64,000 bases of DNA from NCBI GenBank assembly GCA_031272185.1, contig JAISUG010000058.1, forward strand, positions 8,203 to 72,202, read 5' to 3'. The first letter of the stretch is position 1; every line of letters begins with the position of its first letter. The stretch comes from Lachnospiraceae bacterium (GTDB taxonomy: Bacteria > Bacillota > Clostridia > Lachnospirales > Lachnospiraceae). This document shows positions 17,836-61,014 of the stretch, one piece after another. Made by a program: the position numbers and the translations under genes. Under the pieces are notes generated by a model. It did not search any database. It worked only from the letters and a program-made list of their open reading frames with translations, and was not told the origin of the DNA.

Positions 17836-17984
17836 CCGGAAAGGCATCGTGTGAAAACGTCAGCAAACGTTTTCATCACTATTTGTGCCGCCAGCGTCAG
17901 CGGCGGAATGAAGGTTGATATGAAAGAATTGATAGAACCAGGAAAACGGAAGAATTGAAAGGACCAAGAAAACGGAGGAGCGAG

Positions 17985-19214
17985 ATGAAAAAAAGAGGGA
18001 TGTCGGAGATTGTGGCGGTGGCAGCGGCGGTGGCGCTGGCGGTGTCCGGGTTGGTAGGCTGCGGAGGTTCCGGTGGTGCGGCCACCCAGGCGGCAGGCAC
18101 GTCAGGGGCCGGCGCCGGGGCGGATGCGAGCGCGGCGGGGCAAGGCAGCGCTTCCGGCGAGGGGACCGCTGCGGCAGGTGCGGGTACCGCGGCCGGGGAG
18201 TCTGCCAAACCACAGCCGGGCGGCGAGCTGTACGTGTACAACTGGGGCGAGTACATCGACGAGGACGTCATTGACATGTTCGAGGACGAAACCGGCATAC
18301 AGGTCATTTACGATGTGTTCGAGACCAACGAGGAGATGTACCCTGTCATCGAAGCGGGGGGCGTGTCCTATGACGTGGTGTGCCCGTCGGACTACATGAT
18401 CCAGAAGATGATCGAGAACAACCTGCTGGCGAAGCTGGATTTTTCCAACATCCCCAGTTTTGATCAGATAGATCCCAGGTTCGTGGAGGATTCCAAGAGC
18501 TTCGACCCGGACAACGCATATTCGGTCCCCTATACATGGGGCACGGTGGGGATCCTGTACAATACTTCCCTGGTGCCGGAGGACAAAGCCCCCACCAAGT
18601 GGGCGGACCTGTGGGACGAGTCATTCAAAGGCGAGATCCTCATGCAGGACAGCGTGCGGGATGCGTTCATGGTGGCCTTGAAAATGCTGGGGTATTCCCT
18701 GAACTCCACCGACGAAAAGGAGCTGGAAGAGGCCAAGGACCTGCTCATCGCCCAGAAGCCCCTGGTGCAGGCATATGTCATCGACCAGGTGCGGGACAAG
18801 ATGATCGGCGGCGAGGCGGCCATCGGCGTGATCTACTCCGGGGAGATGCTATACATCCAGGAGGAAGTGGAGTCGCTGGGCCTTGACTACGAACTGGAAT
18901 ACGTGCTGCCGGAGGAGGGGAGCAACGTCTGGATCGACGCCTGGGTCGTCCCCGCCAATGCCAAAAACAAATACAATGCGGAGCTGTGGATAGACTTCAT
19001 GTGCCGGCCTGAGATTGCGCTGAAGAACTTCGAGTATATCACCTACTCCACCCCCAACAAGGGCGCATTTGACATGCTGGACGAGGATCTGCAGACCAAC
19101 AAGGCCCTCTTCCCCGACGCAGAGGCCCTGAAAAACTGCGAGGTCTTCCGCTACATGGGCCCCGAGGCAGACGAACTGTACAACAACCTCTGGAAAGAGG
19201 TGAAGAGCAACTGA
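17985..19214 (+). CDS. potD: spermidine/putrescine ABC transporter substrate-binding lipoprotein
   Basis: Lipobox LVGC after a signal peptide and a PotD-like body (YVYNWGEYI...PYTWGTVGILYN). ATG at 17985 follows GGAGGAG. Gly/Ala/Ser linker of about 55 aa after the lipobox. Confidence 0.9.
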   Translation: MKKRGMSEIVAVAAAVALAVSGLVGCGGSGGAATQAAGTSGAGAGADASAAGQGSASGEGTAAAGAGTAAGESAKPQPGGELYVYNWGEYIDEDVIDMFEDETGIQVIYDVFETNEEMYPVIEAGGVSYDVVCPSDYMIQKMIENNLLAKLDFSNIPSFDQIDPRFVEDSKSFDPDNAYSVPYTWGTVGILYNTSLVPEDKAPTKWADLWDESFKGEILMQDSVRDAFMVALKMLGYSLNSTDEKELEEAKDLLIAQKPLVQAYVIDQVRDKMIGGEAAIGVIYSGEMLYIQEEVESLGLDYELEYVLPEEGSNVWIDAWVVPANAKNKYNAELWIDFMCRPEIALKNFEYITYSTPNKGAFDMLDEDLQTNKALFPDAEALKNCEVFRYMGPEADELYNNLWKEVKSN

Positions 19215-19229
19215 CTTGTATCCGTTATT

Positions 19230-19279
19230 TGGCCAACGACATATTAAACCGTGCTATGGCGACGATATGTCGTTGGCCA
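19230..19279. other. 15-bp perfect inverted repeat with a 20-nt loop
   Basis: TGGCCAACGACATAT ... ATATGTCGTTGGCCA, directly after potD at the edge of a lower-GC islet. No T-run follows. Confidence 0.6.
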
Positions 19280-19308
19280 TAGTACCGAAATGAAAGGACG
19301 CGCGAACA

Positions 19309-19587
19309 ATGATGTATCCATTCATGACATTAGACGACGGTACTGTGGTTGTGCACTCCGAAGCCATCCTCCATGGTGACAAAGAAAGTGTAAAGGTGTA
19401 TTTTGAAAAACCAGTGGTTGGGGGGTTTAACAGTGCTGTGTGCTGGCTGCCGGCATATCGGTGGGAGGATATAGTCGGCTTCTCACAAAGCGATATTGAC
19501 AAGTATCAGAGTTTTCTGGAAACGGTGGCACATGTCGTGGTCCAATTGTCGCGGGAAGGCGGGTTTGACAATGCCGCAAATTTTTAA
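19309..19587 (+). CDS. hypothetical small protein (92 aa)
   Basis: ORF with RBS-like GAAAGGA upstream, lying in a lower-GC segment. Overlaps the next gene by 17 nt. No family recognised. Confidence 0.5.
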   Translation: MMYPFMTLDDGTVVVHSEAILHGDKESVKVYFEKPVVGGFNSAVCWLPAYRWEDIVGFSQSDIDKYQSFLETVAHVVVQLSREGGFDNAANF

Positions 19588-19849
19588 GGTTGGTTCCTAC
19601 GTGATCTTTTTCTGGGCGAACGAAAACCTACCATTGGAACCAGTTCATGTGCATATATCGTACCGTATACCGTCCGAGGTCTCGAGCAAGGTTTGGATTA
19701 CGAAATCGAGGAAAGGGTTGCTATGCCACAACGATGCGCACATACCAAGACGGTTACTGACGATCATACTTGAGATTATATCGTCACGGAGTTCGGAAAT
19801 CATCGAAAAGTGGCTGGGGTTCTTTGGGCAAATCGATTATTATTGCTAA
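19571..19849 (+). CDS. DUF4160-family small protein
   Basis: MPQIFKVGSYVIFFWANENLPLEPVHVHI matches the characteristic DUF4160 N-terminus (MPxI...GxxxxFFxxNExxEPxHxH). Confidence 0.65.
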   Translation: MPQIFKVGSYVIFFWANENLPLEPVHVHISYRIPSEVSSKVWITKSRKGLLCHNDAHIPRRLLTIILEIISSRSSEIIEKWLGFFGQIDYYC

Positions 19850-19876
19850 AGTGCAAGGGGCTAAGATGAGGGGGGC

Positions 19877-21970
19877 ATGATGTTTGAGTATCCCATCGAC
19901 GGGGAGACGCTCCTGCGCAAGTACAGATCCATCCGGCGGGAACTTATGGGGGGATGCCAAGGGGACTGGCTGGACAAGCGCATCGCCATCCTGGGGGGCT
20001 CCACCACTGCGGAAGTGCGCAAGATGCTGGAACTGTTTTTGCTCTACCATGGGATCAGGCCTGTGTTTTATGAGTCGGAGTATGGGGCATACTGGCGGGA
20101 TGCCATGTTTGGCAATGATGCCCTGGCGGCATTTGCGCCGGACGTGATCTACATCCACACCACGGTGCGCGACATCGAACGCTTCCCGGAGGTGGGGGCT
20201 GCCGGCGGCGCAGGTGGGGCCGGCGAACCGACCCCGGGAAAGGGAGGACTCTTGGCCGGGGAAGCGCACCCCGATGGGGCGGGCACTGCCGAAGTGGCAG
20301 ATGCTTCGAAGTGCCCGGGTGGCGCCGTGGCAGACGTTTCGAAGTGCTCGGGTGGCACCGGGGCAGGCGCAGCATCTGCCGAGGATGCCCTCCTGGCGCA
20401 GGAGTTCGGGCGTTTTCGCGGCATGTGGGAAAAGCTGGCTGCGGATTACCATTGCCCCATCATACAGAACAACTTCGAGTACCCGGACGTGCGCCTGCTG
20501 GGCAATGCAGACGCATACATGCAGGGCGGGCGTGTGCGTTTCGTCTCCCGTCTGAACCTGATGTTCGCTGACTATGCGGCTACCCACGGCGGCCTGTATA
20601 TCAACGACATCAACTGGCTGTCGGCAGACTATGGGCTGGGGCGGTGGGCGGACCCGTTTTACTGGCATATGTACAAATACGCCATGGCCCTGCCGGCGAT
20701 CCCACACCTGGCGCAGAGTGTGGCCCGTATCGTCAAGTCCCTTTACGGAAAGAACAAAAAGGTGCTGGCGCTGGATCTGGACAATACCCTCTGGGGCGGC
20801 GTGGTGGGCGACGACGGGCCCGAAAACCTGGAGATGGGGCAGGAGACCTCCGCCGGGCAGGCTTTCGCCGCAATGCAGTCATACGTGAAGGCGCACCCAA
20901 AGCTCGGGGTGGTGCTGGGTGTCATTTCCAAAAACGACGAAGAAAACGCCCTCGCCGGGCTGCGCCGCCCGGACAGCGCGCTGGCGCCGGAAGACTTCGC
21001 ATCCATCAAGGCGAACTGGCAGCCGAAAAGCCAAAATCTGGTAGAGATGGCGGATGAGCTGGGGCTTTTGCCGGATAGTTTCGTGTTCGTGGACGACAAC
21101 CCCGCGGAGCGGGAGATCGTCAGGCGCCAGGTCCCGGGCGCGGCCGTGCCGGACATGGGGCAGCCGGAGCTCTACATCAGGGCGCTGGACCGCAATGGGT
21201 ATTTTGAGGTGACGGGGCTGTCGGCGGACGACCTGGCCCGGGGGGATATGTACCGGGAAAATGCCCGGCGCAAACAGGCCGAGACGGCATTTGCCGATTA
21301 CCATGCGTATTTGGAGTCGCTGGAAATGGCGGCGGAGATCGCACCGTTTGCGCCCATGTACATGTCCCGCATCGCACAGCTCACCAACAAAAGCAACCAG
21401 TTCAACCTGACCACCAGGCGGTATTCCCAGGAAGAGATCGAGGCCATGGCCGGGGACGGCAGGTATATCACCCTGTACGGGAAGCTGACGGACAGGTTCG
21501 GCGACAATGGGGTGGTGAGCGTGGTGGCGGGGGAGGTAGTTGGGGAAACCCTGCATATCCGTCTCTGGCTCATGTCCTGCCGGGTATTGAAGCGAAGCAT
21601 GGAACACGCCATGATGGACGAGCTGGTGCGGCGGGCGCAGGCACGGGGCGTCACGAGGATCGCGGGGTATTATTACCCGACCGCAAAAAACGGGATGGTG
21701 CGGGATTTCTACGGGGGGATGGGGTTTGAGAGGGTTTCGGGCGGTGCAACGGATGCCCTGGCGGATGGAGAAGCTGCCGGTGGTGCGGGTGGAGTATCGG
21801 GGCAGGCCGAAAGCGCGTCAGGGCAGGCCGAAAGCGCGTCAGGGCAGCCCGAAAATGCCGGAGGGACGGTCTGGGAGCTGGACATCGGGCGTGGGTATGA
21901 AGTGAAACAGGATGTGATAAAGATAGTGTGTGGCGGAAAGCCTGTGACGGATGAGGCCGGTGGCTCATAA
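19877..21970 (+). CDS. FkbH-like protein (HAD-IIIC phosphatase/acyl-loading domain plus GNAT-like C-terminal domain)
   Basis: HAD motif I LALDLDNTLWGG, ISKNDEENA, FVDDNPAERE, NQFNLTTRRY and a C-terminal LWLMSCRVLKRSME...YYYPTAKNGMVRDFY. RBS GAGGGGGG. Gly/Ala-rich insertions at about 20190-20400 and 21740-21870. Confidence 0.8.
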   Translation: MMFEYPIDGETLLRKYRSIRRELMGGCQGDWLDKRIAILGGSTTAEVRKMLELFLLYHGIRPVFYESEYGAYWRDAMFGNDALAAFAPDVIYIHTTVRDIERFPEVGAAGGAGGAGEPTPGKGGLLAGEAHPDGAGTAEVADASKCPGGAVADVSKCSGGTGAGAASAEDALLAQEFGRFRGMWEKLAADYHCPIIQNNFEYPDVRLLGNADAYMQGGRVRFVSRLNLMFADYAATHGGLYINDINWLSADYGLGRWADPFYWHMYKYAMALPAIPHLAQSVARIVKSLYGKNKKVLALDLDNTLWGGVVGDDGPENLEMGQETSAGQAFAAMQSYVKAHPKLGVVLGVISKNDEENALAGLRRPDSALAPEDFASIKANWQPKSQNLVEMADELGLLPDSFVFVDDNPAEREIVRRQVPGAAVPDMGQPELYIRALDRNGYFEVTGLSADDLARGDMYRENARRKQAETAFADYHAYLESLEMAAEIAPFAPMYMSRIAQLTNKSNQFNLTTRRYSQEEIEAMAGDGRYITLYGKLTDRFGDNGVVSVVAGEVVGETLHIRLWLMSCRVLKRSMEHAMMDELVRRAQARGVTRIAGYYYPTAKNGMVRDFYGGMGFERVSGGATDALADGEAAGGAGGVSGQAESASGQAESASGQPENAGGTVWELDIGRGYEVKQDVIKIVCGGKPVTDEAGGS

Positions 21971-22053
21971 TCAACTGGGTTTGGGGATTGATCTGCGAAC
22001 ACGAAAAGGCAATTGGTGTGAATAAACACGCAGAGTCTGGGATAGGTGTATGT

Positions 22054-22302
22054 ATGACGAAAGAAGCGGTTTACGAAGTGCTGCATGAAGTGTTCCGGGA
22101 TGTGTTTGACGACGAAAGCATAGTCCTCAAGGACCAAACCACGGCGGCGGATATCGATGGCTGGGATTCCCTGGAGCATGTGGGGCTGGTGCTGGCCATC
22201 GAGGAGGCTTTCGGGATGAAGTTCACCATGTCGGAAGTGCGGCACATGGAAAATGTGGGCGAGATGGTGGCCGTCCTCATGGAGCGGGGGCAGCTGCGGT
22301 AG
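22054..22302 (+). CDS. acyl carrier protein (DltC-like)
   Basis: 83 aa with the phosphopantetheine-attachment motif DIDGWDSLEHV. Lies immediately downstream of the FkbH-like gene. Confidence 0.8.
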   Translation: MTKEAVYEVLHEVFRDVFDDESIVLKDQTTAADIDGWDSLEHVGLVLAIEEAFGMKFTMSEVRHMENVGEMVAVLMERGQLR

Positions 22303-22387
22303 TGGTTATCAGGCGTATTGCAGGGGATCCGGCTGTTTGGCGGTCAGTCCGATATCATGGTTCGGCCATCGGGTTGGGGGTGGTGTT

Positions 22388-24664
22388 TTGTCAATAATTT
22401 CCTTGCCGTTCTTTGTTTTCGTGGCTGTGGTGTTGCTCCTATACTATATCGTGCCCATGAGGGTTCGCTGGTGCGTGCTGCTGGCGGCCAGCGCGGTTTT
22501 TTTCGTGTTGAATTCCATGTCGGCCGGAGCGGGCGCAGCAGCCGGAGCGGGCGCAGCAGCCGGGGCGGGTGCGGCAGCCGGGGCGGGCGGGATAGCCGGG
22601 GCAGGTGCGGCAGCCGTAGCAAGCGGGATAGCCGGGATAGCCTGGCAGCTGCCGCTCATTTTCCTGTGCCAGGTGGCGTTGGCCTATGTGGGGGGCCTGG
22701 CGGCAGGGGATGCAGGTTTGCCCGCCGGGGGCTTGGCGGCAGCAAGTCCGTCCGGACAGGTACAGCCAGGAGGAAATGACGTACCGCAGAGGGCAGGTGG
22801 GGGCGGTGTGGACGCCTCGCACGTGTCGGCAAGGTGGGGCGGAAGAAACAAGCATCTTATCGTCACGGCAGTTATCTTGCTGGAAATCGCAGCGCTTATC
22901 ATATGGAAAGAGAACTCCTTTTTCACCATCAACGCAAGGCTGGTGCGGGGGATGCTGGGGTTGTCCGCAGACGCCGCGTACTGGGGGTGGCTGGCACCCA
23001 TCGGCATGTCTTACTATACCCTGATGCTCGTGGGGTATGTGGCGGACGTAGCCTGGGGGGAGGGCAAGCCCCAGGAAAACTTCCTGAAACTCATGCTGTT
23101 TGCGGGGTATTTCCCCCAGATGGTGTCCGGACCGTTCACCAGGTACGCCGAAATCAGCCCGCAGCTGTATGGGGGGCATCGGTTCGACGGCAGGGAATTT
23201 TGCTTCGGCGTCCAGCGGTTTTTCTGGGGCCTTTTCAAGAAGCTGGTGCTGGCGGAGCGCCTGGCCGTGGTAGTGGCGGCGGTGTATGATGGAGGTGCCT
23301 GGGCGGGTGCGGCATCAGGCTCCGGGGCCGCTGTAGGTGCAGGCACAGGGGCCGCTGTAGGTGCAGGGGCACTGGCAGCGATGAGGTTGGGTGCCGTCAC
23401 CGTCTACGGGGCAGGAACTGCCGGGGCGGGTACAGCCGCCGCCGCAGGAGTTGCCGCTTTGGCAGGCGCCGGTGGGGGGTATGCCACGGGGGCGGCGGTC
23501 CTGGTGGGGTTTGCGGCCTATGCGCTGCAGCTGTATACGGATTTCGGCGGCTGCATGGACATGCTCATCGGCATCTCCCAGATGTTCGGCATACGCCTGC
23601 CCGAAAACTTCCGCACACCTTTTGCGTCCACCAGCCTGTCCGAGTTTTGGCGCCGCTGGCACATCACCCTGGGGCTGTGGCTCAAGGACTATGTGCTTTT
23701 CCCGTTCCAGCGGTCGCGTTTTGCGGGATGGGTGCGGGCGCGCATTTCCCATCGGGTGGGGCTGCGGTTGTTGAAGGCTTCCCAAGCCCGGCCCGGAAAC
23801 TACTTAAGTGCAACTTTCGTAAATGGTACTCAGAATGAACCGGGTCAGCCTACAGATGCCGCCCGAAAGCAATTGGAGAGGATGGCGCACAGGCAAGGCG
23901 AGAAAGCGGGGAACCGCATCGTCACTTACTTGGGGCTGTCCCTCCTCTGGTTTTCCATCGGGTTCTGGCACGGCGGTTCGTACAAATTCATCTTCTGGGG
24001 GCTGCTCACATTCGTCTTCATCGCTGGGGGGATGTTGCTGGATCCCGTTTTTCGGAAGATGGCGCAGGTGCTTCATGTAAGCACCACGTCCCGCGGGTTC
24101 CGGCTGTTTTCGAAGGTGCGGACGGCGGCGCTGTTCATCGTCAGCCTGAGCTTCCAGAGGGCACAGAGCCTGCCGGAAGGCTTGCGTATGTGGGGGCGGG
24201 TGTTCGGGGCAGGGGCAGGTGGGGCAAACGTGGCAAACCCTATCGGAACAAAGCTAACCGGTGCGGCGGCAGCTGTCGTGACTGCCGGGTTGCAGGGAGC
24301 TATGCCGGCCACACAGACTGCGGCAGGGGTGGTGATGCAGGGCGTAGGCGGTTTAGGGAATGCGCTTTGGCAGCGAACGTCTAACATGGATATAGCGGTT
24401 GGGATGCAGGGCGTAGGCAGTGTAGGGAATGCCTTGGCCGGGTTCGGCCTGGAGGGCAAAGACCTGTTGGTGCTGGTGTGCGGCCTGGCGGTGCTGTTCA
24501 TAGTATCCCATGTCCAGTCGCATGGTTCCGTCCGGGAAGCCATCTCACGCAAGCCCTGGCCCCTGCGTGGCCTACTCTGGGCAGCCCTGGTGGTGGCCGT
24601 GGTGGTCTTCGGGATGTACGGGCGGGGATATGACCCCGGTTCTTTCATTTACGGGGGGTATTGA
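22388..24664 (+). CDS. MBOAT-family membrane O-acyltransferase (DltB/AlgI-like)
   Basis: MBOAT histidine motif SEFWRRWHITLGLWLKDYV and many TM helices. The start is uncertain. TTG at 22388, after GGGGGTGG, gives a typical SIISLPFFVF N-terminus. The ATG at 22253 would add 45 W/C-rich residues and overlap the ACP gene. Three Ala/Gly-rich insertions. Confidence 0.8.
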   Translation: MSIISLPFFVFVAVVLLLYYIVPMRVRWCVLLAASAVFFVLNSMSAGAGAAAGAGAAAGAGAAAGAGGIAGAGAAAVASGIAGIAWQLPLIFLCQVALAYVGGLAAGDAGLPAGGLAAASPSGQVQPGGNDVPQRAGGGGVDASHVSARWGGRNKHLIVTAVILLEIAALIIWKENSFFTINARLVRGMLGLSADAAYWGWLAPIGMSYYTLMLVGYVADVAWGEGKPQENFLKLMLFAGYFPQMVSGPFTRYAEISPQLYGGHRFDGREFCFGVQRFFWGLFKKLVLAERLAVVVAAVYDGGAWAGAASGSGAAVGAGTGAAVGAGALAAMRLGAVTVYGAGTAGAGTAAAAGVAALAGAGGGYATGAAVLVGFAAYALQLYTDFGGCMDMLIGISQMFGIRLPENFRTPFASTSLSEFWRRWHITLGLWLKDYVLFPFQRSRFAGWVRARISHRVGLRLLKASQARPGNYLSATFVNGTQNEPGQPTDAARKQLERMAHRQGEKAGNRIVTYLGLSLLWFSIGFWHGGSYKFIFWGLLTFVFIAGGMLLDPVFRKMAQVLHVSTTSRGFRLFSKVRTAALFIVSLSFQRAQSLPEGLRMWGRVFGAGAGGANVANPIGTKLTGAAAAVVTAGLQGAMPATQTAAGVVMQGVGGLGNALWQRTSNMDIAVGMQGVGSVGNALAGFGLEGKDLLVLVCGLAVLFIVSHVQSHGSVREAISRKPWPLRGLLWAALVVAVVVFGMYGRGYDPGSFIYGGY

Positions 24665-24860
24665 AGCTGGGGAGGAGTGAAAATTATCGTGTCAATAATT
24701 TTTGAAAATGTCACCCCGCTGCATTCTACCATGGGGGGGGCGACATTTTCGCAGGTGAATTTACATACTGACATTATCACAGGTTAACAACATTGCCCAA
24801 TGCAACCCTTGCTATTTAGACGCAAAACCGCATGCAACGAGTTGAGCGAACGCTGGAGAT

Positions 24861-24986
24861 AATTCTCCAAATCTGACATGAAACAGGAGATTTGGTGAAT
24901 TATATTTTAGAAAATGATGAAAAATGTGGGCGATCTGCAATCATACTTCTCCAAATCTATCGAAATTTACGAGATTTGGAGAAGTA
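24861..24986. other. two related hairpins sharing the arm TTCTCCAAATCT
   Basis: AATTCTCCAAATCT-N12-AGATTTGGTGAATT (24861-24900) and a perfect ACTTCTCCAAATCT-N13-AGATTTGGAGAAGT (24946-24986), upstream of the ATPase gene. Confidence 0.7.
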
Positions 24987-25062
24987 TCCTTGCAATTTCA
25001 AGCAAGATCTGATAGAATACGCTATAGTGGTGGCTGATTCTGAGAGGGTTAGGGATGGCGTT

Positions 25063-26472
25063 ATGGGGATTGTCGCAAGGGATTTGGAGATAAAGTCGCT
25101 TAGAGAGTGGCTGGGGTCTGACCAATCGGAGTTTGTCGCGGTTTATGGACGACGCCGCATAGGGAAAACGTTCCTGGTGCGGGAGGTGCTGTCAGATCGG
25201 TTTGCTTTTTATGTGACCGGGCAGGAAAGTGGGGGCCGCAAGGAGCAACTGGCAGTGTTCAACCGCGCCCTCAATATATCTGCCACGGATTCCTCGGTCT
25301 TTGCGCAGAAAGATTCTTGGCTGGAAACGTTCTGGCAACTGGAAGACCTGATCCGCAACCATACGGACACTAGGAAGAAAGTGATTTTTATTGATGAGAT
25401 GCCGTGGCTGGATACACCTAAATCCGGGTTTATGTCGGGGCTGGAGTATTTTTGGAACTCCTTTGCAAGTGCCCGAAAGGACGTCATGCTCATTGCATGC
25501 GGCAGTTCTTCCTCGTGGTTGATCGAGAACCTGTTTGAAAACACCGGCGGGTTGTTCAACCGCATCACACAGCAGCTGAAACTCCCGCCTTTCACGCTGT
25601 CGGAGTGCGAACAATTATTCAAACACTATGATATTCGGATGACGCGATACCAGATCATACAAAGTTATATGATATTCGGCGGAATCCCCCACTACATGTC
25701 CCGATTTAGAAAAGAATACTCCTTGGCGCAGAATGTCGATGCGCTCTGTTTCGCAAATGATGCACCGATGAAAAATGAATACAAACGGCTGCTGTCCACG
25801 CTCTTTCGTAATGATGCGCACTACGACAAGCTCCTGCACACATTTGCGGCCCACCCCGGAGGGCGCAGCCGGGATGACCTGACGAAAGCCACCGGATTGT
25901 CAGGGGGACAATTGACAGGCGCACTCGAAAAACTAGAGGAGTGTGATTTCATCCGCCGGTATCACCCGTTCGGGAAAAAGAAAAAAGACACACTGTGGCA
26001 GCTCATGGATCCGTTCGTGCTGTTCCACCACCGGTTCATACGCGACGGCACCGGGCGAGACGCGAATTATTGGACAAGGAATGTCCAGTCCAGCCTCTTG
26101 CTCCCATGGAGCGGGTTTGCGTTTGAACGGGTTTGCCTGTGGCACAGCAGCCAGATCCGTGATGCCCTCGGGCTGGGCGGCGTATCGATCGATGTCTGTG
26201 CTTGGCGAGGGGATGGCGCACAGGTCGACCTCATCCTCGACCGCAGCGACATGACAGTGAACCTGATCGAAATCAAGTTTTCGATAAGCCCCTATCGCAT
26301 CACGGGGGCGTATATGGAAAAACTCCGAACCCGGCTGACCTTGTTTGTGGAGCAGACCGGTACGAGGAAAGCCTTGCACACTACGCTTCTGACGACATTC
26401 GGCCTCGCGGCAAACGAATATTCAGGCGAAATCCAGTCGTCGCTGACGCTGGAAGACCTGTTCAGGCACTGA
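25063..26472 (+). CDS. AAA-family ATPase with C-terminal DUF234/PD-(D/E)xK-like domain
   Basis: Walker A YGRRRIGKT, Walker B VIFIDEMPW and a C-terminal VDLILDRSDMTVNLIEIKF (D...ExK pattern). ATG at 25063 follows AGGGA. Codon usage is visibly less GC-biased than in neighbouring genes. Confidence 0.75.
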   Translation: MGIVARDLEIKSLREWLGSDQSEFVAVYGRRRIGKTFLVREVLSDRFAFYVTGQESGGRKEQLAVFNRALNISATDSSVFAQKDSWLETFWQLEDLIRNHTDTRKKVIFIDEMPWLDTPKSGFMSGLEYFWNSFASARKDVMLIACGSSSSWLIENLFENTGGLFNRITQQLKLPPFTLSECEQLFKHYDIRMTRYQIIQSYMIFGGIPHYMSRFRKEYSLAQNVDALCFANDAPMKNEYKRLLSTLFRNDAHYDKLLHTFAAHPGGRSRDDLTKATGLSGGQLTGALEKLEECDFIRRYHPFGKKKKDTLWQLMDPFVLFHHRFIRDGTGRDANYWTRNVQSSLLLPWSGFAFERVCLWHSSQIRDALGLGGVSIDVCAWRGDGAQVDLILDRSDMTVNLIEIKFSISPYRITGAYMEKLRTRLTLFVEQTGTRKALHTTLLTTFGLAANEYSGEIQSSLTLEDLFRH

Positions 26473-26572
26473 TACATCTATGCGGGTTGATACAACTTCG
26501 GAGGCTGATACATCTTTGGGGGCTGATACATCTTCGGGGGCCGATACATCTTCAGGGGCGGATATGGCTGGC
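26466..26572. repeat. 18-nt tandem repeat, about 5.5 copies (GGCTGATACATCTTCGGG)
   Basis: The first copy (GCACTGATACATCT) contains the TGA stop of the ATPase gene. TGATACA recurs at 26470, 26488, 26506 and 26524. Confidence 0.9.
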
Positions 26573-26655
26573 GTTGGTTGTGTTGCATATATTTGGCTTG
26601 GAAACTCAGCGATGCAAGTAGTTTTTCACATGCACTGATTGCGAGGTAAAGCACC

Positions 26656-28053
26656 ATGGGATTTATGGACAAAGACTTCCTGCTGACCACCGACTCGGCG
26701 AAACACCTGTTCCACACCTACGCCGAAAACCTGCCGGTCATCGACTACCACTGTCATATCGACCCCGCGCAAATCCTGGAAAACCACGAGTTTTCCGACA
26801 TCACGGAGGCATGGCTCGGCGCCGACCACTACAAATGGCGGTTGATGCGCGTCTGCGGCGCGGATGAAAAATACGTCACGGGGGACGCCTCGGCGCGGGA
26901 GAAGTTCCGCGAGTTCTGCCGTTTGCTGCCACTGGCGCCGGGGCACCCTGTCTACCACTGGTGCCACTTGGAGCTGCGGCGGTATTTTGGCTGCGAACTC
27001 ATCATCGGAGAAAAGACGGCTGACGAGATTTTTGACATTTGCGGCGAGAAACTCAAAAGCCTGCGTGTCCGGGACATCATCAAAGAGTCGAACGTCAAGG
27101 CCATCTGCACGACCGACGACCCGGCGGACGAACTTTCCAGCCACACTGCGCTGAAAGCCGACACGTCTTTTGGCACAGTCGTCCTCCCGGCGTTCCGCCC
27201 GGACAAATCCATAAACCTGCACAAGGGCGACTACCCGGAGTACCTTCAGAAGCTTGGATTGGCCGCGAACATACGGATCGCGACACTGGACGATTTGCTT
27301 GCGGCGCTTGAAAACCGCATCGACTATTTCGATGCCCACGGCTGCAGGGCCTCCGACCACGGGTTGGACTGCGTGAACGGCGAGATCCCGACCCAAAAAG
27401 AGGCAAGCGCCATTTTCGCAAAAGCCCTCTCTGGGGGCATCAGCCAGTCCGAACAGGATGCGTTCGCCAGCTTTATGCTGTGCTTCCTTGGCCGGGAATA
27501 TGCAAAGCGCGGCTGGGCCATGGAGATACACGTCGGCGCGGAACGCAACGTAAACGCAAAAATGTTTTCGCGCTTGGGCCCCGACACCGGGTTCGACGCC
27601 GTGCGGGACGGGCACAGTCTCAAAACCCTGCACAAAGTCCTGGACCAACTCGACCGGGAGTCCCTGCTGCCTAAAACGCTTGTGTTTTCGCTGAACCATA
27701 ACGACAACCTGACCATCACGACACTGACAAGCTGTTTCTCCCAAGGCGGCGTGCCGGGGAAAGTCCAACCGGGGGCGGCCTGGTGGTTCAACGACAGCAT
27801 TTTGGGCATGAGGGAGCATATGGAGCGCATGGCGAGCGTGCAGGCGCTGGGCAACTTCGTCGGTATGCTGACAGACTCGCGCAGCTTCCTTTCATATCCG
27901 CGGCACGAGTATTTCAGGCGCATTCTCTGCGGATACCTGGGGGATTTGGTCGAGGGCGGGCTCTACCCCGAAGATTATGAGACCCTTGGCAGAATAGTCC
28001 AAAACATTTCGTATTACAATGCGGCGAAGTTTATAGGATTTGATTTGAAATAA
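26656..28053 (+). CDS. uxaC: glucuronate (uronate) isomerase
   Basis: FLLTTDSAKHLFH...PVIDYHCHIDP...HYKWRLMR and C-terminal WWFND...TDSRSFLSY, typical UxaC. GAGG RBS. Confidence 0.92.
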   Translation: MGFMDKDFLLTTDSAKHLFHTYAENLPVIDYHCHIDPAQILENHEFSDITEAWLGADHYKWRLMRVCGADEKYVTGDASAREKFREFCRLLPLAPGHPVYHWCHLELRRYFGCELIIGEKTADEIFDICGEKLKSLRVRDIIKESNVKAICTTDDPADELSSHTALKADTSFGTVVLPAFRPDKSINLHKGDYPEYLQKLGLAANIRIATLDDLLAALENRIDYFDAHGCRASDHGLDCVNGEIPTQKEASAIFAKALSGGISQSEQDAFASFMLCFLGREYAKRGWAMEIHVGAERNVNAKMFSRLGPDTGFDAVRDGHSLKTLHKVLDQLDRESLLPKTLVFSLNHNDNLTITTLTSCFSQGGVPGKVQPGAAWWFNDSILGMREHMERMASVQALGNFVGMLTDSRSFLSYPRHEYFRRILCGYLGDLVEGGLYPEDYETLGRIVQNISYYNAAKFIGFDLK

Positions 28054-28234: not shown

Positions 28235-29188
28235 TCACTCCAGCACGGCGATGTATTCCACGGAGTCCACTCTCGCATCTTTGTCGAAGTGGAAGGTCAG
28301 CTTGGTCTTGCCCAGCGCATAGGTGATGAAGCCGGCCGCTTCCTGGGTGGCGTCCTTGGCCACCGGGGTGAGGGCGGTGCTGGCACCTTCGGTGCTGGCA
28401 CCTTCGGTGATGGCACCTTCGGTGCCGGCGGAGGTGACTCCGAGGACGGCGCCGGAGCCGGTGGACGCCGCCGCACCGGCCTGTCCGGCGGGGATGGACA
28501 CGGATTTGATGCCACCATCATAGGCGGCCACCACCTCGGCTTTCGTGGAGCCGATATGGATGCCCTCCTCCGTGTAGACGGTGCCGTCCAGGAAATAGAT
28601 GTCCTGGATGAAGTCTTTGCCGCCCAGGGGGTATGTTATGAGCTCAAAGGCCGCATAAGTGTATGTCTTGTCGATGCCCTGGTATGCGCAGCTTGGCGCC
28701 TCAAAATAGCCCGCTGGCTGACCCAGGCCCTCAATGACGGGGATGGCCTCGCCGTGGGGGGCGATGCGCACACGTGGGGCGTTCGGGTCTATGGGTGCGG
28801 CGGATGCCGCATTCGCCCCGGCCAGGGGGCCTGCGGCGGCGCTTGACGTGACTGCGGATCCGGCGGCTTTCGGGGCGGCGGACGATACGCCGGTTGGGGC
28901 GCTCGCCGCCGGGTCAGGGAGATAGAACGTGAAAGCGAACTCCGTGGCGGGGACGGTGATGGTGTCTGGGGCTGCCCCTGTGCCAGCGGCTGCCTCTGTG
29001 CCGGAAGCGGTATCGGTTTCCGAAGCAGACAGCTCCACGCTGTTATAGCTGGCGCCTGCGGGGGGGACATAGGCAGTCACCTTGCGGGTGGCGCCCAGGG
29101 TGGCCATAGGCCATGCCAGGGCTGAAGTCAGGGCTGCCGCAACCGCCCATCCAAAGAATCTCTTCCAAGTGCTGTGGGTGCGTTTCAT
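28235..29188 (-). CDS. secreted hypothetical protein with Ala/Ser/Thr/Gly-rich tracts
   Basis: Signal peptide (MKRTHSTWKRFFGWAVAAALTSALA) and RBS GAAAGGGGA. No family recognised. Confidence 0.6.
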   Translation of the reverse strand: MKRTHSTWKRFFGWAVAAALTSALAWPMATLGATRKVTAYVPPAGASYNSVELSASETDTASGTEAAAGTGAAPDTITVPATEFAFTFYLPDPAASAPTGVSSAAPKAAGSAVTSSAAAGPLAGANAASAAPIDPNAPRVRIAPHGEAIPVIEGLGQPAGYFEAPSCAYQGIDKTYTYAAFELITYPLGGKDFIQDIYFLDGTVYTEEGIHIGSTKAEVVAAYDGGIKSVSIPAGQAGAAASTGSGAVLGVTSAGTEGAITEGASTEGASTALTPVAKDATQEAAGFITYALGKTKLTFHFDKDARVDSVEYIAVLE

Positions 29189-29210
29189 AAGTGTTCCCCT
29201 TTCATATGCT

Positions 29211-30335
29211 TTACTCCCCCATGAAGCGGAGGATCCCGCCGTACCGCGCGATCTCGTCCAGCTGCTGCGCTTTCATGGCTTCGTAGCTGTGCGCTTTTGC
29301 ATCCCAGGCGGCCCGAAGCGCCGCTTCCTTGCGCCGGTCCGGTGGGCTGGGGGCAACCTGTCCACCTGCCACAATGGCCGGCTCGGCCGGCGCATCCTGC
29401 CGGTGGTCGGGCAAGCCGACCGTGCCGGATAGGTATGCACCCAGCCAATGCGCTGTCTTCTCGGCGCCGTAGGTGTTCAAGTGGAGGCCGCCGTCGTAAG
29501 TGTCCGTCAGGAAATCCAGCCCGATGCTGTCTTTTTGTTCCAATGCGTTCACATAGTCCAAGCCATGTGCGGCGGCAAAGGCGATAACCTGTTCCTCCCA
29601 CTGCTCATGCCACGCCGGGTACAGCGACGGCGCCTTGAAGAGAATCAGCCGTATGCCATTTTCCCTGCAGAGTGTGGCGATGCTTTCCAGTGCGGCCATG
29701 TTGCCCTCGTCGAAGCTGTAGTCAGGCAACCGCCTGGCTGCGGGGAACGTCCCGGCGGGCTTGGTGTCCATACGCATATAATACCCATTGAAACTGATGG
29801 TGTCAAGGGAAAAGAAATACCGCAGGTCATCGGATGTCAACTCCTTCCACCTGTCGTGGTAGCGCAGGATGGGGAATACGTAGTCCGCAAAGCGCTCGTC
29901 GGGCAGCTTGGTCTTGTGGATGGCTGCGGCTTTGTCCGGGGACCAGCGCATGCCGTCCAGGGTCATGCGGTTGTAGGCCTCGCTCTCCTGCGTGGGGCGG
30001 GTCATGGCCAGGACGCTCAGCACCAGGGCCCGGGGCGTCTCGGTGCGCAATGTGTCGCGCAGCAGGTAATAAGACTGCCACATCATCTGGCTGGCGCTGC
30101 CCCGGATATAGGAGGTGATGCCGTAGTCTTCCCACAGGGTGATGGGGGAGATGTTCTCGTACACTTCGCAGTCGCCCAGGAAAACCACGTCATGGGCGGT
30201 GGTTTCCCCATAATACTCCTGTATCAGGGCACCCTCGATGACCTTGCCCATATACTTCGGCATCAACAGGCGCTGCGCCGCGGCCAGGGCGGCGATGACC
30301 ATGATGAGGATGAGTGCGGGGCGCTGGTACTTCAT
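29211..30335 (-). CDS. membrane-anchored SGNH/GDSL-like protein (DltD/AlgX-like candidate)
   Basis: N-terminal TM helix (ALILIMVIAALAAA), block-I-like VVFLGDCEVYE and block-V-like DGGLHLNTYGAEK. ATG at 30335. The longer ORF start lies inside a repeat array. Confidence 0.6.
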   Translation of the reverse strand: MKYQRPALILIMVIAALAAAQRLLMPKYMGKVIEGALIQEYYGETTAHDVVFLGDCEVYENISPITLWEDYGITSYIRGSASQMMWQSYYLLRDTLRTETPRALVLSVLAMTRPTQESEAYNRMTLDGMRWSPDKAAAIHKTKLPDERFADYVFPILRYHDRWKELTSDDLRYFFSLDTISFNGYYMRMDTKPAGTFPAARRLPDYSFDEGNMAALESIATLCRENGIRLILFKAPSLYPAWHEQWEEQVIAFAAAHGLDYVNALEQKDSIGLDFLTDTYDGGLHLNTYGAEKTAHWLGAYLSGTVGLPDHRQDAPAEPAIVAGGQVAPSPPDRRKEAALRAAWDAKAHSYEAMKAQQLDEIARYGGILRFMGE

Positions 30336-30423
30336 GCAAGGGGCGGTTCCTTTCTGGGATATCCATGCGTCCGTTTTTTCCCAGGACGGATGAAGCCGAT
30401 AATACACATAGGCCAAACCGGTA

Positions 30424-30525
30424 AAGCGAGCCGACGGCCATGGGGCGAGCCGACGGCGGTGGGGCGTGCCGACGGCCATGGGGCGTGCCGACGGCGGTGG
30501 GGCGTGCCGACATCACGGCTTAGGG
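30424..30525. repeat. 19-nt tandem repeat, about 5 copies (GCCGACGGC[CA/GG]TGGGGCGWG)
   Basis: CCGACGG recurs at 30431, 30450, 30469 and 30488, with CCGACAT at 30507. The array abuts the stop (30520-30522) of the upstream minus-strand gene. Confidence 0.9.
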
Positions 30526-31737
30526 CGTGGGCGGGTACAGGCTGCGGTCGAATGCGAAGCAGTTGTAATGCCGGGCGGAGTAGGAGAGCATCTGGGCATC
30601 CGTCCAGAAGAGGAAGTCGCCGCCGCTGCCCCTGGGCGTGGTGTCAAAATGGTACCAGGCGCCGTCCAGGTTGATCAGGTTCCAGTAATGGTCGGCGTCC
30701 GTGGAGCGGATCACCTCGATGCTGGGGATGCCAATCCTGGAGAGCATCTCCACCGACAGGGAAAAATACACGAAGCAGTTGCCCCTGCGGCGGGTGATGC
30801 CATTGTACGCTTCCAGCACCCAGTCACGGGTGCAGGGCGTGCCCACGTAGTGGACGCTGCCGCGGATCCAGTAGTAGATGGCGGCGGCTTTCTGGCGCTG
30901 GGTCATGGAATCGTCGGTAATCTGGGCGATGATGCCGTCCGCGATGGAGTCCAGCTGCCGGTGCAGGTCGGACTTCTCGTCGTCGGGCGGGATATATACG
31001 GGCGCTTTGAAAGAAGATGCGGACGCCCCCGATGAATCGAAGGTGTAGTTGGCCCCGCCGATGTTCAAGGTGGCGTCGTGGACCATGGCCCCGGAATCGG
31101 AGAGGTAGTAGGTCTGGGCGCCGTCCTGGAGCCAACCGGTCTGCATGTAGCCGTCCCCGTCGAAATGGTACCAGTCGCCCTGCCAGTAAAACCAGGTGGC
31201 GGCGGGGTAGGAGCCGCCCCTATCCAGGTACCACCAGCCCCGGCCGTCCTGCACCCACCCGGAGTACAGCGGGTCCGGGGTGCACACGCCGTTTTCCGCT
31301 ATGTCGTATGCGGTTCCGCCGATGATGCGGTGCCCCGCAGTGGCCATGGTGCCGTCCTCGCCCAGCCAGTAAAGGCCGGGCCCGCTTCCGTACCAGCCGG
31401 TGAGCATGGCGCCGTCCGTGCCGAAACGGTACCAGGCGCCGTCAACCTGGGCCCAGGCATCCGTGATAAGTGCGCCGTCGGCGTCGAAGCGGTACCGGGC
31501 GCCGTCGATCTCCACCCATGCGTCCTTGATGGGCGCGCCGTAGGCGTCGAAGCGGTAGAGGGCGCCGTCGATCTCCATCCACGCGTCAACGACGGGCGCG
31601 CCGTCGTCGCCGATGTAGCGGGCCTGCCCGTCGGAAACCAGCCATTCCCCCGCAAACGCACTCAGCAAAAAAGCCGAAAATGAAAAAGCGCAAGTTAATG
31701 CGCCTATGGTAAATATGGTCTTGATTCGCCTGCCCAT
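30520..31737 (-). CDS. secreted protein with cell-wall-binding repeats and a transglutaminase-like cysteine-protease domain
   Basis: Several GW/YxF repeats (DGALYRFDAYG, DGARYRFDADG, DGAWYRFGTDG). C-terminal Cys-His-Asp core (RRGNCFVYF, DHYWNLI, WYHFD). Signal peptide present. RBS AAAGGAGGAA before the ATG at 31737. Confidence 0.8.
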   Translation of the reverse strand: MGRRIKTIFTIGALTCAFSFSAFLLSAFAGEWLVSDGQARYIGDDGAPVVDAWMEIDGALYRFDAYGAPIKDAWVEIDGARYRFDADGALITDAWAQVDGAWYRFGTDGAMLTGWYGSGPGLYWLGEDGTMATAGHRIIGGTAYDIAENGVCTPDPLYSGWVQDGRGWWYLDRGGSYPAATWFYWQGDWYHFDGDGYMQTGWLQDGAQTYYLSDSGAMVHDATLNIGGANYTFDSSGASASSFKAPVYIPPDDEKSDLHRQLDSIADGIIAQITDDSMTQRQKAAAIYYWIRGSVHYVGTPCTRDWVLEAYNGITRRRGNCFVYFSLSVEMLSRIGIPSIEVIRSTDADHYWNLINLDGAWYHFDTTPRGSGGDFLFWTDAQMLSYSARHYNCFAFDRSLYPPTP

Positions 31738-31960
31738 GGTTCCTCCTTTGTCATGCGGTGTACTGCCATGCCGGCCGCGGCAAGGGGATGGAGACAAGGG
31801 ATTTTGCAATATGCCGGCTTGTCAGTGCACTGGAAGCATTATACCGCTTTTGGCATGAATTGTCCATATTTTACGATAAAAAGTTCATTGCCATTTTTCG
31901 CTTTTCATTTTTGCGCCAATGCATTATACTACAAACATGTACCGGGGAAGGGGGATGGGT

Positions 31961-35579: not shown

Positions 35580-36842
35580 CTACGACTGCATCCTGGGATG
35601 CAGCTGCATACCGGCTTTCACAAGGCGGAACATGCGGCGGGCGGCGCCCAGGTAGAGCTCTTCGCTGCGCCCCAGGGCTTCATCCAGGTCCATGGCACCG
35701 TTGATGGTGGTCATGATGCTGTCGATGCCGTGGTCGAAGAGCTTTTCGGCGCCTTCGCCCATGCCCCCCACGATGGCCACCGCAGGGATGCTTTTCTTTC
35801 GGCAGCGCTGCCCCACGCCGCTGGGGACCTTGCCAAAGGCCGACTGCCAGTCCATGCGGCCTTCGCCGGTGACTACCAGGTCGGTGCTTTCCAGCAAATC
35901 ATCAAACCCGATCAGGTCCAGGACGGTCTCGATGCCGGACTGCATCCGGGCGCCCAGGAACACAGTGAGGGCAGCACCTAGGCCGCCTGCCGCCCCTGTG
36001 CCGGGGACCTGGTCGGGGTCGATGCCGGTTTTTTCCGTCAGGAGCTTCGCATAGGCGCACATGTCCGCTTCCATCCGATCCAGGATGTCGGGGGTGCCGC
36101 CTTTTTGTTTGCCGAAAGTGTAGGTGGCGCCGTCGGGGCCGGTGAGTGGGTTTTGCACGTCGCACATGACGGTGAATGTGGCGGTCTTCACGCCGGGGTG
36201 CAGTTCGGAGAGGTCTATGTCGCGCACCCGTCCCAAGTCTTCCCCGAACCCTGTGAGAACATGGCCCTGCTCGTCCAGGAAGCGGATGCCCAGCGCGGAC
36301 ATCGCCCCCATGCCGCCGTCGTTGGTGGCGCTGCCGCCGATGGCCACGGCGATGTGGGAGATCCCGGCATCCAGTGCGTCCTTGATCAGTTCCCCTGTGC
36401 CGTATGTGGTGGTGTGCAGGGGGTTGCGTCTGTCAGGGGGGACCATGGGCAGCCCGGAGGCCGCCGCCATCTCGATGATGCAGTGGGAGTATGGTGCGCC
36501 GATGCACCGGGTAGGCGAACCGGGTGCGGCAGAGCCGGTGCCGGCGTCGATGTCCGGCATGGTGTCCGCCGCTGGGGGGGTGCGGCACAACGAGGGTTCC
36601 TCCCACACGCCGTAGGCTGCCTGGGTTTCCTCCATCAGGGGCCCGTGAACCGGCACGGTACGCAAAACCCCGCCGGTGGCGGCGATGACGGCAGATGTGG
36701 TGCCCTCCCCGCCGTCGGCGATGGGAACACCCAGGGTATGGCAGCCGGGGAAGACCTCTGTGGCGGCCTGTGTGAGCAGCGCGCTGATTTGTTCCGACGT
36801 CAGTGTTCCCTTGAAAGAATCCGAGGCAAAGAGGAAACGCAT
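35580..36842 (-). CDS. glxK: glycerate kinase
   Basis: MRFLFASDSFKGTL, PIADGGEGT and GGSATNDGG motifs. Insertion of about 40 aa at about 36480-36600. Confidence 0.88.
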   Translation of the reverse strand: MRFLFASDSFKGTLTSEQISALLTQAATEVFPGCHTLGVPIADGGEGTTSAVIAATGGVLRTVPVHGPLMEETQAAYGVWEEPSLCRTPPAADTMPDIDAGTGSAAPGSPTRCIGAPYSHCIIEMAAASGLPMVPPDRRNPLHTTTYGTGELIKDALDAGISHIAVAIGGSATNDGGMGAMSALGIRFLDEQGHVLTGFGEDLGRVRDIDLSELHPGVKTATFTVMCDVQNPLTGPDGATYTFGKQKGGTPDILDRMEADMCAYAKLLTEKTGIDPDQVPGTGAAGGLGAALTVFLGARMQSGIETVLDLIGFDDLLESTDLVVTGEGRMDWQSAFGKVPSGVGQRCRKKSIPAVAIVGGMGEGAEKLFDHGIDSIMTTINGAMDLDEALGRSEELYLGAARRMFRLVKAGMQLHPRMQS

Positions 36843-60790: not shown

Positions 60791-60820
60791 TTGACAGTGG
60801 TGTGGGGGATGTGGTAGATT
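60791..60820 (+). promoter_or_regulatory. candidate promoter upstream of the riboswitch-like element
   Basis: TTGACA (60791-60796), 18 nt spacer, TAGATT with an extended -10 TGG. Confidence 0.5.
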
Positions 60821-60834
60821 ATAGACAGTGAAGC

Positions 60835-60918
60835 GGGCTTGTATATGCCCATGATCGTGTCTTTTGACCGTCGGATGGGCGTTTCTACCAACTGCCGTAA
60901 CAGTTGACTACAAGGGCC
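60835..60918 (+). ncRNA. purine (guanine/xanthine-type) riboswitch-like aptamer with enlarged P2/L2
   Basis: P1 is CTTGTA / TACAAG and P2 is GCCCAT / ATGGGC. J2/3 is GTTTCTAC. P3 is CAACTG-CCGTAA-CAGTTG. J3/1 is ACT. The J2/3, L3 and J3/1 strings match the conserved core of the B. subtilis xpt guanine aptamer (..GUUUCUACC...CCGUAA...GACUA..). Confidence 0.6.
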
Positions 60919-61014
60919 ACCAAAGAGCGGGATGCCAAAGCGGGTGAAGGTGTCTGCGGCGATTTGCGGTGGGAGGTCGATTGCGGGCGGTTTTTTTATT
61001 TAACAGGAGACGAT

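Follow-up and report, generated by a model that had tools for sequence, protein, structure and literature searches.

A cassette of FkbH-type loader, acyl carrier protein and DltB-like MBOAT in a gut Lachnospiraceae genome, a candidate for carrier-dependent acylation of the cell envelope

The cassette and its relatives

The stretch of DNA analysed here (the window) comprises 64 kb of the genome of a gut Lachnospiraceae bacterium, and all coordinates are relative to it. Between positions 19877 and 24664, open reading frame (ORF) calling yields three intact ORFs on the same strand, encoding an FkbH-like protein, an acyl carrier protein (ACP) and an acyltransferase of the MBOAT family. They are considered here as the core of a system in which an FkbH-type enzyme, in place of an adenylating enzyme of the DltA type, would provide the donor for acylation of the cell envelope. 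The three genes, with the kind of evidence for each (HMM, hidden Markov model), are the following:

19877-21970 (+): FkbH-like loader of 697 aa with FkbH_N, HAD-IIIC phosphatase domain and GNAT-fold C-terminal domain (HMMs, alignment, structural model)
22054-22302 (+): stand-alone ACP of 82 aa with phosphopantetheine-site Ser39 in a WDSL motif (HMMs, alignment)
22388-24664 (+): DltB-like MBOAT of 758 aa counted from TTG 22388, in an ORF open from 22253 (HMMs, alignment, tree)

The loader matches TIGR01686 ('FkbH domain') with 275.2 bits (cut-off 146.65) over model positions 3-320 of 323, i.e., over essentially the full length, and additionally TIGR01681 (HAD-IIIC) and PF21211 (FkbH_N; 29.3 at a cut-off of 27); its name at NCBI is 'HAD-IIIC family phosphatase'. 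Aligned with 22 homologues, the protein shows invariant HAD motifs, D300-x-D302-x-T304 (within LDLDNTLWGG, residues 299-308), S351-K352 and D406-D407, and an equally invariant Cys568 in the sequence LWLMSCRVLKR of the C-terminal domain, which we take, from the biochemistry of OzmB, to be the catalytic cysteine of an acyl-S-enzyme. The sole solved relative by sequence is an N-terminal/phosphatase fragment of Bacteroides fragilis BF1531 (PDB 3SLR, E 2e-40), which is devoid of the C-terminal domain. In the AlphaFold model (mean predicted local distance difference test, pLDDT, 70), the front part with the N-terminal and HAD domains matches 3SLR/BF1531 and MDP-1, and the C-terminal domain matches many GNAT acetyltransferases (template-modelling score, TM-score, on the target 0.7-0.79).

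Concerning the carrier, all 77 ACP homologues compared retain the serine of the DSL motif, Ser39. ACP models match it with E about 1e-8 and PP-binding with 19.6 bits, slightly under the cut-off, and an identical protein from a Lachnospiraceae metagenome-assembled genome (MAG) is named 'acyl carrier protein' at NCBI.

The MBOAT likely starts at TTG 22388, since a Shine-Dalgarno-like site (GGGGGTGG) lies upstream and the N-termini of homologues, MSI(I/V)S, match. It matches PF03062, and a profile of its family finds in the PDB only structures of DltB (8JEM and 6BUG, E about 1e-27). The motif RRWHITLGLWLKDY is found in the protein, and His425 (RRWHITLG) and His528 (GFWHGG) are invariant in the alignment. 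Its sequence terminates with ...DPGSFIYGGY, Tyr755 being situated within FIYGGY, and the same kind of C-terminal end, FxYxx[FY], is present in 40 of 40 ACP-linked MBOATs of related loci. In the Dlt system, the acyl group goes from the MBOAT to the microprotein DltX, onto the tyrosine of its FxYxxF hexapeptide; in MBOATs of the PatA type, which belong to non-Dlt MBOAT/SGNH pathways without a carrier protein, this hexapeptide is fused to the MBOAT's own C-terminus (PMC12148441, 2025 JBC). As the shuttle motif is likewise fused to the MBOAT of the window, DltX would not be needed.

A sequence-only reading of this DNA had described three co-directional genes for an FkbH-like protein with a HAD-IIIC DxDxT core and a GNAT-like C-terminal domain, an 83-aa carrier with a DSL motif, and an MBOAT with a histidine motif, without an adenylation-domain gene in the cassette. 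The gene arrangement, the intact ORFs and all three family identities are borne out by the HMM searches and by the invariant residues, and the GNAT-like label stands because of the predicted fold; solely the length of the carrier has to be corrected, to 82 aa. The missing adenylation domain holds for far more than the cassette: with the DltA-like proteins of two Dlt-like operons (L088 and L087, see below) as tblastn queries, no AMP-binding homologue was detected in the entire window, nor did the carriers of these operons find a match there (tblastn, E <= 1e-3).

Relatives of the FkbH-like protein number at least 8000 in clusters of 90% identity and at least 576 in a collection of one genome per GTDB species, so that this type of cassette is common and no rarity of the genome studied. 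They belong mostly to Lachnospiraceae and Oscillospiraceae, with some in Synergistaceae, Kiritimatiellae, Bacteroides, Flexilinea and other MAGs. Cultivable carriers include Eubacterium plexicaudatum ASF492 (L037), Lachnospiraceae bacterium 28-4 (L029) and Gallintestinimicrobium propionicum (L031). ORF calling, phmmer searches and clustering were applied to the best 80 genomic loci. Among the 78 loci with at least 500 nt downstream of the FkbH gene, an ACP homologue follows on the same strand within 3.5 kb in 67 and adjoins the FkbH gene directly in 55. Where at least 5 kb are available on each side (50 loci), an MBOAT homologue is present in 44 loci, both ACP and MBOAT in 39, and an SGNH, GDSL or DltD-like gene also in 36. 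The association of FkbH, ACP and MBOAT is thus far beyond chance, and this strong conservation of the triad between genomes, together with the family identities, settles in favour of the sequence-only reading the two points on which it could have failed in silico.

The neighbours in the 80 loci comprise GT4 and GT2 glycosyltransferases, GtrA, DegT aminotransferases, epimerases and SGNH or DltD-like proteins, and further DUF6044/DUF6020 membrane proteins and ABC-type polysaccharide exporters. With glycosyltransferases, epimerases and exporters around it, the usual home of the cassette is a glycopolymer locus. A polyketide or tetronate origin of the cassette was considered and rejected, since genes for polyketide synthases (PKS) or FabH-like proteins are found neither in the window nor in the 80 related loci.

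The cassette of the window is a minimal form without any tailoring gene. Some related loci (L008, L019, L022, L028, L055, L057, L084, L003) possess a MaoC dehydratase and an SDR, and/or a split transketolase (N and C), or a Glyoxalase_4 gene between FkbH/ACP and MBOAT. These genes suggest that some lineages tailor the unit bound to the ACP. A dehydratase and a reductase acting on glyceryl-ACP would yield lactyl-ACP, a route proposed for PKS loading modules that contain FkbH, and the variant cassettes may therefore install different hydroxy-acyl esters. In four other loci (L021, L026, L031, L033), the gene directly after FkbH encodes an MBOAT from another clade, an ACP is not detectable in between, and conserved families (clusters c30, c27, c36) come next; this may constitute a further architectural variant.

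A neighbour-joining tree calculated for 85 MBOATs places the protein of the window within the ACP/FkbH-linked clade, beside the MBOATs from L008, L001-L004 and L007. The sister of this clade is a pair of adenylation-linked Dlt-like MBOATs, and MBOATs paired with DltD-like or GDSL genes in the absence of a carrier fall elsewhere. The identity of the window MBOAT amounts to about 30% with adenylation-linked MBOATs, whereas it reaches up to 52% with FkbH-linked ones. It follows that the loader has not been swapped alone, but that the whole cartridge of loader, carrier and MBOAT differs.

The SGNH gene and the Dlt-like frame

HMMs built from the neighbour families of the related loci gave a strong and unexpected match on the minus strand, at 29211-30479, where Pfam models at standard thresholds gave none. 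This gene and those around it are arranged as follows:

28235-29188 (-): secreted protein of 317 aa without Pfam match, after the SGNH gene; homologue of a 170-190-aa protein downstream of SGNH in Dlt-like operons
29211-30335 (-): N-terminally anchored SGNH-fold protein of 374 aa, probable extracytoplasmic partner (HMM, alignment, model)
30419-30513 (no strand assigned): array of a 19-nt unit repeated five times in tandem, within the 185 nt that separate the wall-binding gene from the SGNH gene
30520-31809 (-): protein with Choline_bind cell-wall-binding repeats and a transglutaminase core, conserved first gene of a frame shared with Dlt-like operons

The length of the SGNH protein is counted from the start MKYQRP at 30335. 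Members of its family are situated 0-46 nt downstream of the MBOAT gene in about 20 of the FkbH loci fetched. Lipase_GDSL_2 matches eight of 13 family members weakly and is also the only Pfam family, again with a weak match, for the window protein; DltD is not among the matches, and HMMs built from DltD-like neighbours find nothing in the window. An identical protein bears the name 'SGNH/GDSL hydrolase family protein' at NCBI. Searching the PDB with a profile of the family returned noise only. The structural model (pLDDT 81.5, predicted TM-score 0.83) has a predicted N-terminal helix, and a fold search with it matched exclusively SGNH/GDSL structures, including PatB (7TLV) and DltD (3BMA). Block V (DTYDGGLHLNxxGAEK, with D274, D278 and H285) is invariant. 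Block I of the window protein and its subfamily reads invariably G-D-C-E, with Cys56 at the position of the nucleophile; most FkbH-linked SGNH homologues have Gly-x-Ser at this position. The protein is a probable fourth component of the system, and we infer that it is paired with the cassette.

The proteins most similar to this SGNH protein of the Cys type, at 47-59% identity, belong to a conserved operon of gut Lachnospiraceae with the order choline-binding-repeat/transglutaminase protein, amino-acid adenylation enzyme (TIGR01733 above cut-off, DltA-like models below), 75-aa carrier, MBOAT ending in FIYNQF, SGNH protein, and secreted protein of 170-190 aa (loci L087-L089 and L091-L169, e.g., L088:3158-9710). 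The SGNH alignment retrieved 80 metagenomic loci, of which 54 show the arrangement adenylation-carrier-MBOAT-SGNH, one possesses neither loader, none has FkbH, and 25 are too short for judgement, such that the arrangement is found in 54 of the 55 informative loci. This Dlt-like operon, very common in gut Lachnospiraceae, is itself non-canonical, as it has a fused FIYNQF shuttle, a Cys-type SGNH protein in place of DltD, and no DltX; the choline-binding/transglutaminase protein is always situated upstream.

The window retains the frame of this operon on the minus strand, i.e., the wall-binding/transglutaminase protein, the SGNH protein and the homologue of the small secreted protein. The trio of adenylation enzyme, carrier and MBOAT is missing from it, whereas an FkbH-ACP-MBOAT cassette, with an MBOAT of another subclade, is found at a distance of 4.5 kb, oriented convergently. 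The array of 19-nt units (CGGTGGGGCGTGCCGACGG-like) occupies exactly the site of the trio in the relatives and may be what a deletion left behind or serve a regulatory function. In two further genomes, an Enterocloster MAG (L070) and a Lachnospiraceae MAG (L079), the genes for the wall-binding protein, SGNH protein with Cys, small protein, FkbH, ACP and MBOAT are contiguous and co-directional.

The idea, put forward from the sequence alone, that an FkbH-type loader stands in for the DltA ligase thereby gains independent support, because this SGNH subfamily normally accompanies the adenylation trio, and the window, L070 and L079 have the FkbH cassette instead. It needs to be widened, as the entire module of loader, carrier and MBOAT differs and not the ligase alone, and comparative genomics supports a module swap of this kind. 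The placement of an FkbH cassette inside the Dlt-like frame is rare, and neither flanking inverted nor direct repeats that would mark the boundary of an inversion or a mobile element were found around the cassette. With a carrier-protein donor as in Dlt and a C-terminally fused FxYxxF shuttle as in Pat, the system is better described as a Dlt/Pat hybrid than as simply 'Dlt-like'. The unit probably reaches further than the cassette, to 28235-31809 on the minus strand.

Proposed route of acylation and competing readings

Envelope acyl decorations (D-alanine, acetate) govern how the surface is charged, how well the cell resists antimicrobial peptides and lysozyme, how phages adsorb to it and how the immune system recognises it. 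With the domain identities, catalytic residues, shuttle motif and conserved gene linkage established above, the locus probably encodes a carrier-protein-dependent MBOAT-SGNH acylation of an envelope glycopolymer, the donor of which is provided by an FkbH-type and not by a DltA-type enzyme. The FkbH-like protein would load a phosphorylated acid from glycolysis, with 1,3-bisphosphoglycerate as the likeliest substrate, on Cys568 of the GNAT-like domain; the HAD-IIIC domain would strip the phosphate, and the ACP would receive the glyceryl group on the phosphopantetheine arm of its Ser39. Glyceryl-S-ACP would then bind to the cytoplasmic face of the DltB-like MBOAT, whose His528/His425 site would transfer the acyl group through the membrane to Tyr755 of its own FIYGGY shuttle peptide. 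Finally, the anchored SGNH protein (29211-30335, minus strand) would accept the acyl group on Cys56 and esterify a hydroxyl of a wall- or membrane-linked glycopolymer. The product would probably be a glycerate-type ester on the cell surface, and the target polymer presumably a glycopolymer of the cell envelope. The choice of glyceryl follows from analogy, because the characterised FkbH/ACP pairs, all members of polyketide pathways, make glyceryl-S-ACP from 1,3-bisphosphoglycerate (PMC7489565); the same substrate and product are accordingly presumed here.

Several observations weigh against this reading. The system is known here from its genes alone, and the substrate of the FkbH-like protein is assumed from distant relatives in polyketide pathways. 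With TIGR04091 (DltB), the MBOAT attains 109.6 bits at a cut-off of 375 and is therefore a relative of DltB, not an equivalog; the DltC model NF003464 matches the carrier with E 0.004 and 17 bits at a cut-off of 68, and by this model the carrier is not a DltC. The SGNH operon is situated 4.5 kb from the cassette on the opposite strand, with an islet carrying an ATPase gene and uxaC between them, and the co-function of the two rests on synteny in only two other genomes. No glycopolymer or polysaccharide biosynthesis cluster that would indicate the target was found in the 64 kb window. Only these 64 kb of the genome are visible, so that an adenylation-type module may exist elsewhere in it. Furthermore, two inserts in the FkbH-like protein (about residues 105-165 and 625-665) and five in the MBOAT (40-60 aa each) are absent from all homologues and could impair function, though the frames and active-site residues are intact.

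These inserts (20180-20370, 21750-21870, 22520-22640, 22690-22830, 23290-23460, 23700-23840 and 24200-24440) are of low complexity, Gly/Ala-rich and in frame, and contain tandem repeats with periods of 33, 21, 18/36, 24 and 15 nt, all of them multiples of three. They add about 100 aa to the FkbH-like protein and about 250 aa to the MBOAT, fall in loops predicted with low confidence, and are too little hydrophobic for extra membrane helices.

Among the alternatives, the one that survives best retains the machinery and the route and differs in the acyl group, which would be another unit derived from a phospho-acid, or a glyceryl-ACP tailored elsewhere beforehand. The tailoring genes of the related cassettes (MaoC with SDR, split transketolase, Glyoxalase_4) speak for it, as they imply that the ACP-bound unit varies, and the substrate pocket is contained in no structure, 3SLR ending before the C-terminal domain. 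However, no tailoring gene is present in the cassette of the window, the FkbH catalytic motifs are all retained with a full-length match to TIGR01686, and the formation of glyceryl-ACP is the only FkbH reaction known biochemically (PMC7489565). A different acyl group is hence regarded as rather unlikely.

Considerably less probable is a cytoplasmic role, in which FkbH and ACP would serve glycan modification (N- or O-glyceroylation of a nucleotide sugar) and the MBOAT would be an independent, acetyl-CoA-dependent O-acetyltransferase. FkbH-ACP pairs do occur without an MBOAT in some loci (e.g., L005, L006 and several others), FkbH-domain genes are known from flagellin-glycan loci (cj1302; PMC7099621), the triad of L001 comes after nonulosonic-acid genes, and the MBOAT carries a shuttle motif of the PatA type. 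Against this, the ACP gene almost always directly precedes the MBOAT gene in the clade of the window protein, this clade is sister to the Dlt-like MBOATs linked to adenylation enzyme and carrier, and sugar-nucleotide or glycosyltransferase genes, whose products could consume a cytoplasmic acyl-ACP, are absent from the window. That the cassette is merely a decaying or inactive remnant, disrupted by repeats (seven low-complexity inserts in its two large proteins, with periods of 15-36 nt) and parted by insertions from the SGNH operon, is very improbable, since all three ORFs are open across 4.8 kb at 60% GC, all repeat periods are multiples of three, neither the catalytic residues nor the terminal shuttle motif is damaged, the inserts lie in low-confidence loops unlike membrane helices, and similar inserts are found in other, presumably functional proteins of the window.

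The proposed FkbH-fed acylation shares with Dlt (DltA, DltC, DltB, DltX, DltD) the thioester on a small phosphopantetheinylated carrier, an MBOAT homologous to DltB, a probable SGNH-fold extracytoplasmic partner and, as regards the Dlt-like operons of Lachnospiraceae, the frame of the locus. There are, however, differences: an FkbH-type loader takes the place of the adenylating DltA, the expected acyl group is a neutral hydroxy-acid instead of a cationic amino acid, DltX is absent and the MBOAT itself carries the FxYxxF shuttle at its C-terminus, the partner falls outside the DltD family PF04914, with Cys rather than Ser where the nucleophile is expected, and both carrier and MBOAT remain below the equivalog cut-offs. 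From the operon of gut Lachnospiraceae itself, with which it has in common the flanking genes, the Cys-type SGNH subfamily and the C-terminal shuttle (FIYNQF there), the window differs in lacking the trio and in having the other module nearby.

A C-terminal FxYxxF on the MBOAT and a separate anchored SGNH transferase are also found in PatA/PatB, and in AlgI/AlgJ and WssH, which acetylate secondary cell-wall polysaccharide, alginate and cellulose; these systems use acetyl-CoA and have no carrier protein (PMC12148441), whereas here a dedicated ACP and loader are situated immediately upstream of the MBOAT, whose clade groups with carrier-dependent Dlt-like MBOATs. An ACP gene likewise comes right before the MBOAT gene for 40 related MBOATs. 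PatA/PatB rely on a Ser-His-Asp triad; the SGNH protein of the window has the fold and the His and Asp but Cys56 at the position of the nucleophile, and its gene is 4.5 kb off on the other strand. Concerning the glyceryl-ACP synthases FkbH, OzmB and Mad7 of the methoxymalonyl-ACP and tetronate pathways, TIGR01686 and PF21211, the catalytic motifs and the pairing with a stand-alone ACP are the same (PMC7489565). PKS, FabH-like tetronate synthase and FkbG/I/K-type tailoring genes are absent from the window, in contrast to these pathways, and the acyl-ACP would be used by a membrane MBOAT in loci of the cell envelope.

Searches of a literature library yielded no description linking FkbH to an MBOAT envelope system; the papers found with FkbH and MBOAT or membrane-bound concern natural products, including cyanobacterial clusters in which both words name unrelated genes. 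Database annotation of the genes is generic (HAD-IIIC family phosphatase, acyl carrier protein, SGNH/GDSL hydrolase). Current models know two types of donor for MBOAT-SGNH systems, D-alanyl-DltC and acyl-CoA (PMC12148441). What is new here is the proposed donor route for MBOAT-SGNH envelope acylation together with the unusual Cys-type SGNH partner, the cassette itself being widespread and not unique to this genome. If the reading is correct, this third donor route would amount to a new surface chemistry drawing directly on glycolysis, and would be present in hundreds of species of gut Lachnospiraceae and Oscillospiraceae. Modules of loader, carrier and MBOAT would be exchangeable cartridges on a common frame of SGNH and wall protein. 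With four small soluble or reconstitutable parts, the system would also be a tractable test case for the choice of carrier-protein donors by MBOATs, and the subfamily with a putative Cys nucleophile would be an additional enzymological oddity.

A broader proposal is offered more tentatively, as a serious possibility: gut Clostridia may possess a large MBOAT-SGNH family that esterifies surface glycopolymers with glycolysis-derived hydroxy-acids by way of an FkbH-loaded carrier, with glyceryl in minimal cassettes and lactyl or other groups where a dehydratase/reductase or transketolase is present. In the genome studied, such a module would have displaced the adenylating module of a Dlt-like locus, so that a cationic aminoacyl ester would be exchanged for a neutral hydroxyacyl ester, transferred through an SGNH protein with Cys as nucleophile.

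Flanking islets and other features of the window

On both sides, the cassette borders on stretches of lower GC content, the second of which is followed by a sugar-acid gene:

19215-19870 (+): lower-GC islet with the genes for a 92-aa protein and a DUF4160 protein, within 19309-19849 (GC, Pfam)
24665-26650 (+): lower-GC islet with the gene for a 526-aa PF01637 'archaeal-type' ATPase, at 24892-26472 (GC, Pfam)
26656-28053 (+): uxaC, glucuronate isomerase, between the ATPase islet and the SGNH operon

Both islets are real, with GC contents of 0.46-0.51 compared to about 0.6, as the sequence-only reading had noted; its suggestion of an exchangeable locus is not upheld by them, as they are separate small insertions that provide no evidence of mobility of the cassette. 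The upstream one, in which a 24-nt inverted repeat (19221-19288) lies ahead of the gene pair, is probably an unrelated insertion, and its pair of 92-aa and DUF4160 genes resembles small mobile or toxin-antitoxin-like pairs. The ATPase of the downstream islet has a MarR-like winged helix; a 23-nt inverted repeat (24936-24994) is found near the 5' end of this islet, and an 18-nt tandem repeat with 5.3 copies (26456-26564) after the ATPase gene.

Two further proteins of the window contain low-complexity stretches similar to the inserts described above: a PotD-like lipoprotein (17955-19214) and the secreted protein of 317 aa (28235-29188), whose relatives measure 170-190 aa. This looks like a genome-wide tolerance of repeat expansions in loops.

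A glycerate kinase gene is located near the cassette, at 35580-36842 on the minus strand. Both this gene and uxaC probably belong to sugar-acid catabolism, and a link to a glycerate-derived donor would be speculative. Concerning regulatory RNAs, Rfam searches found none near the cassette; a purine riboswitch (RF00167, 40.9 bits) is situated at 60819-60930 on the plus strand, upstream of an ORF of 1000 aa (60904-63906).

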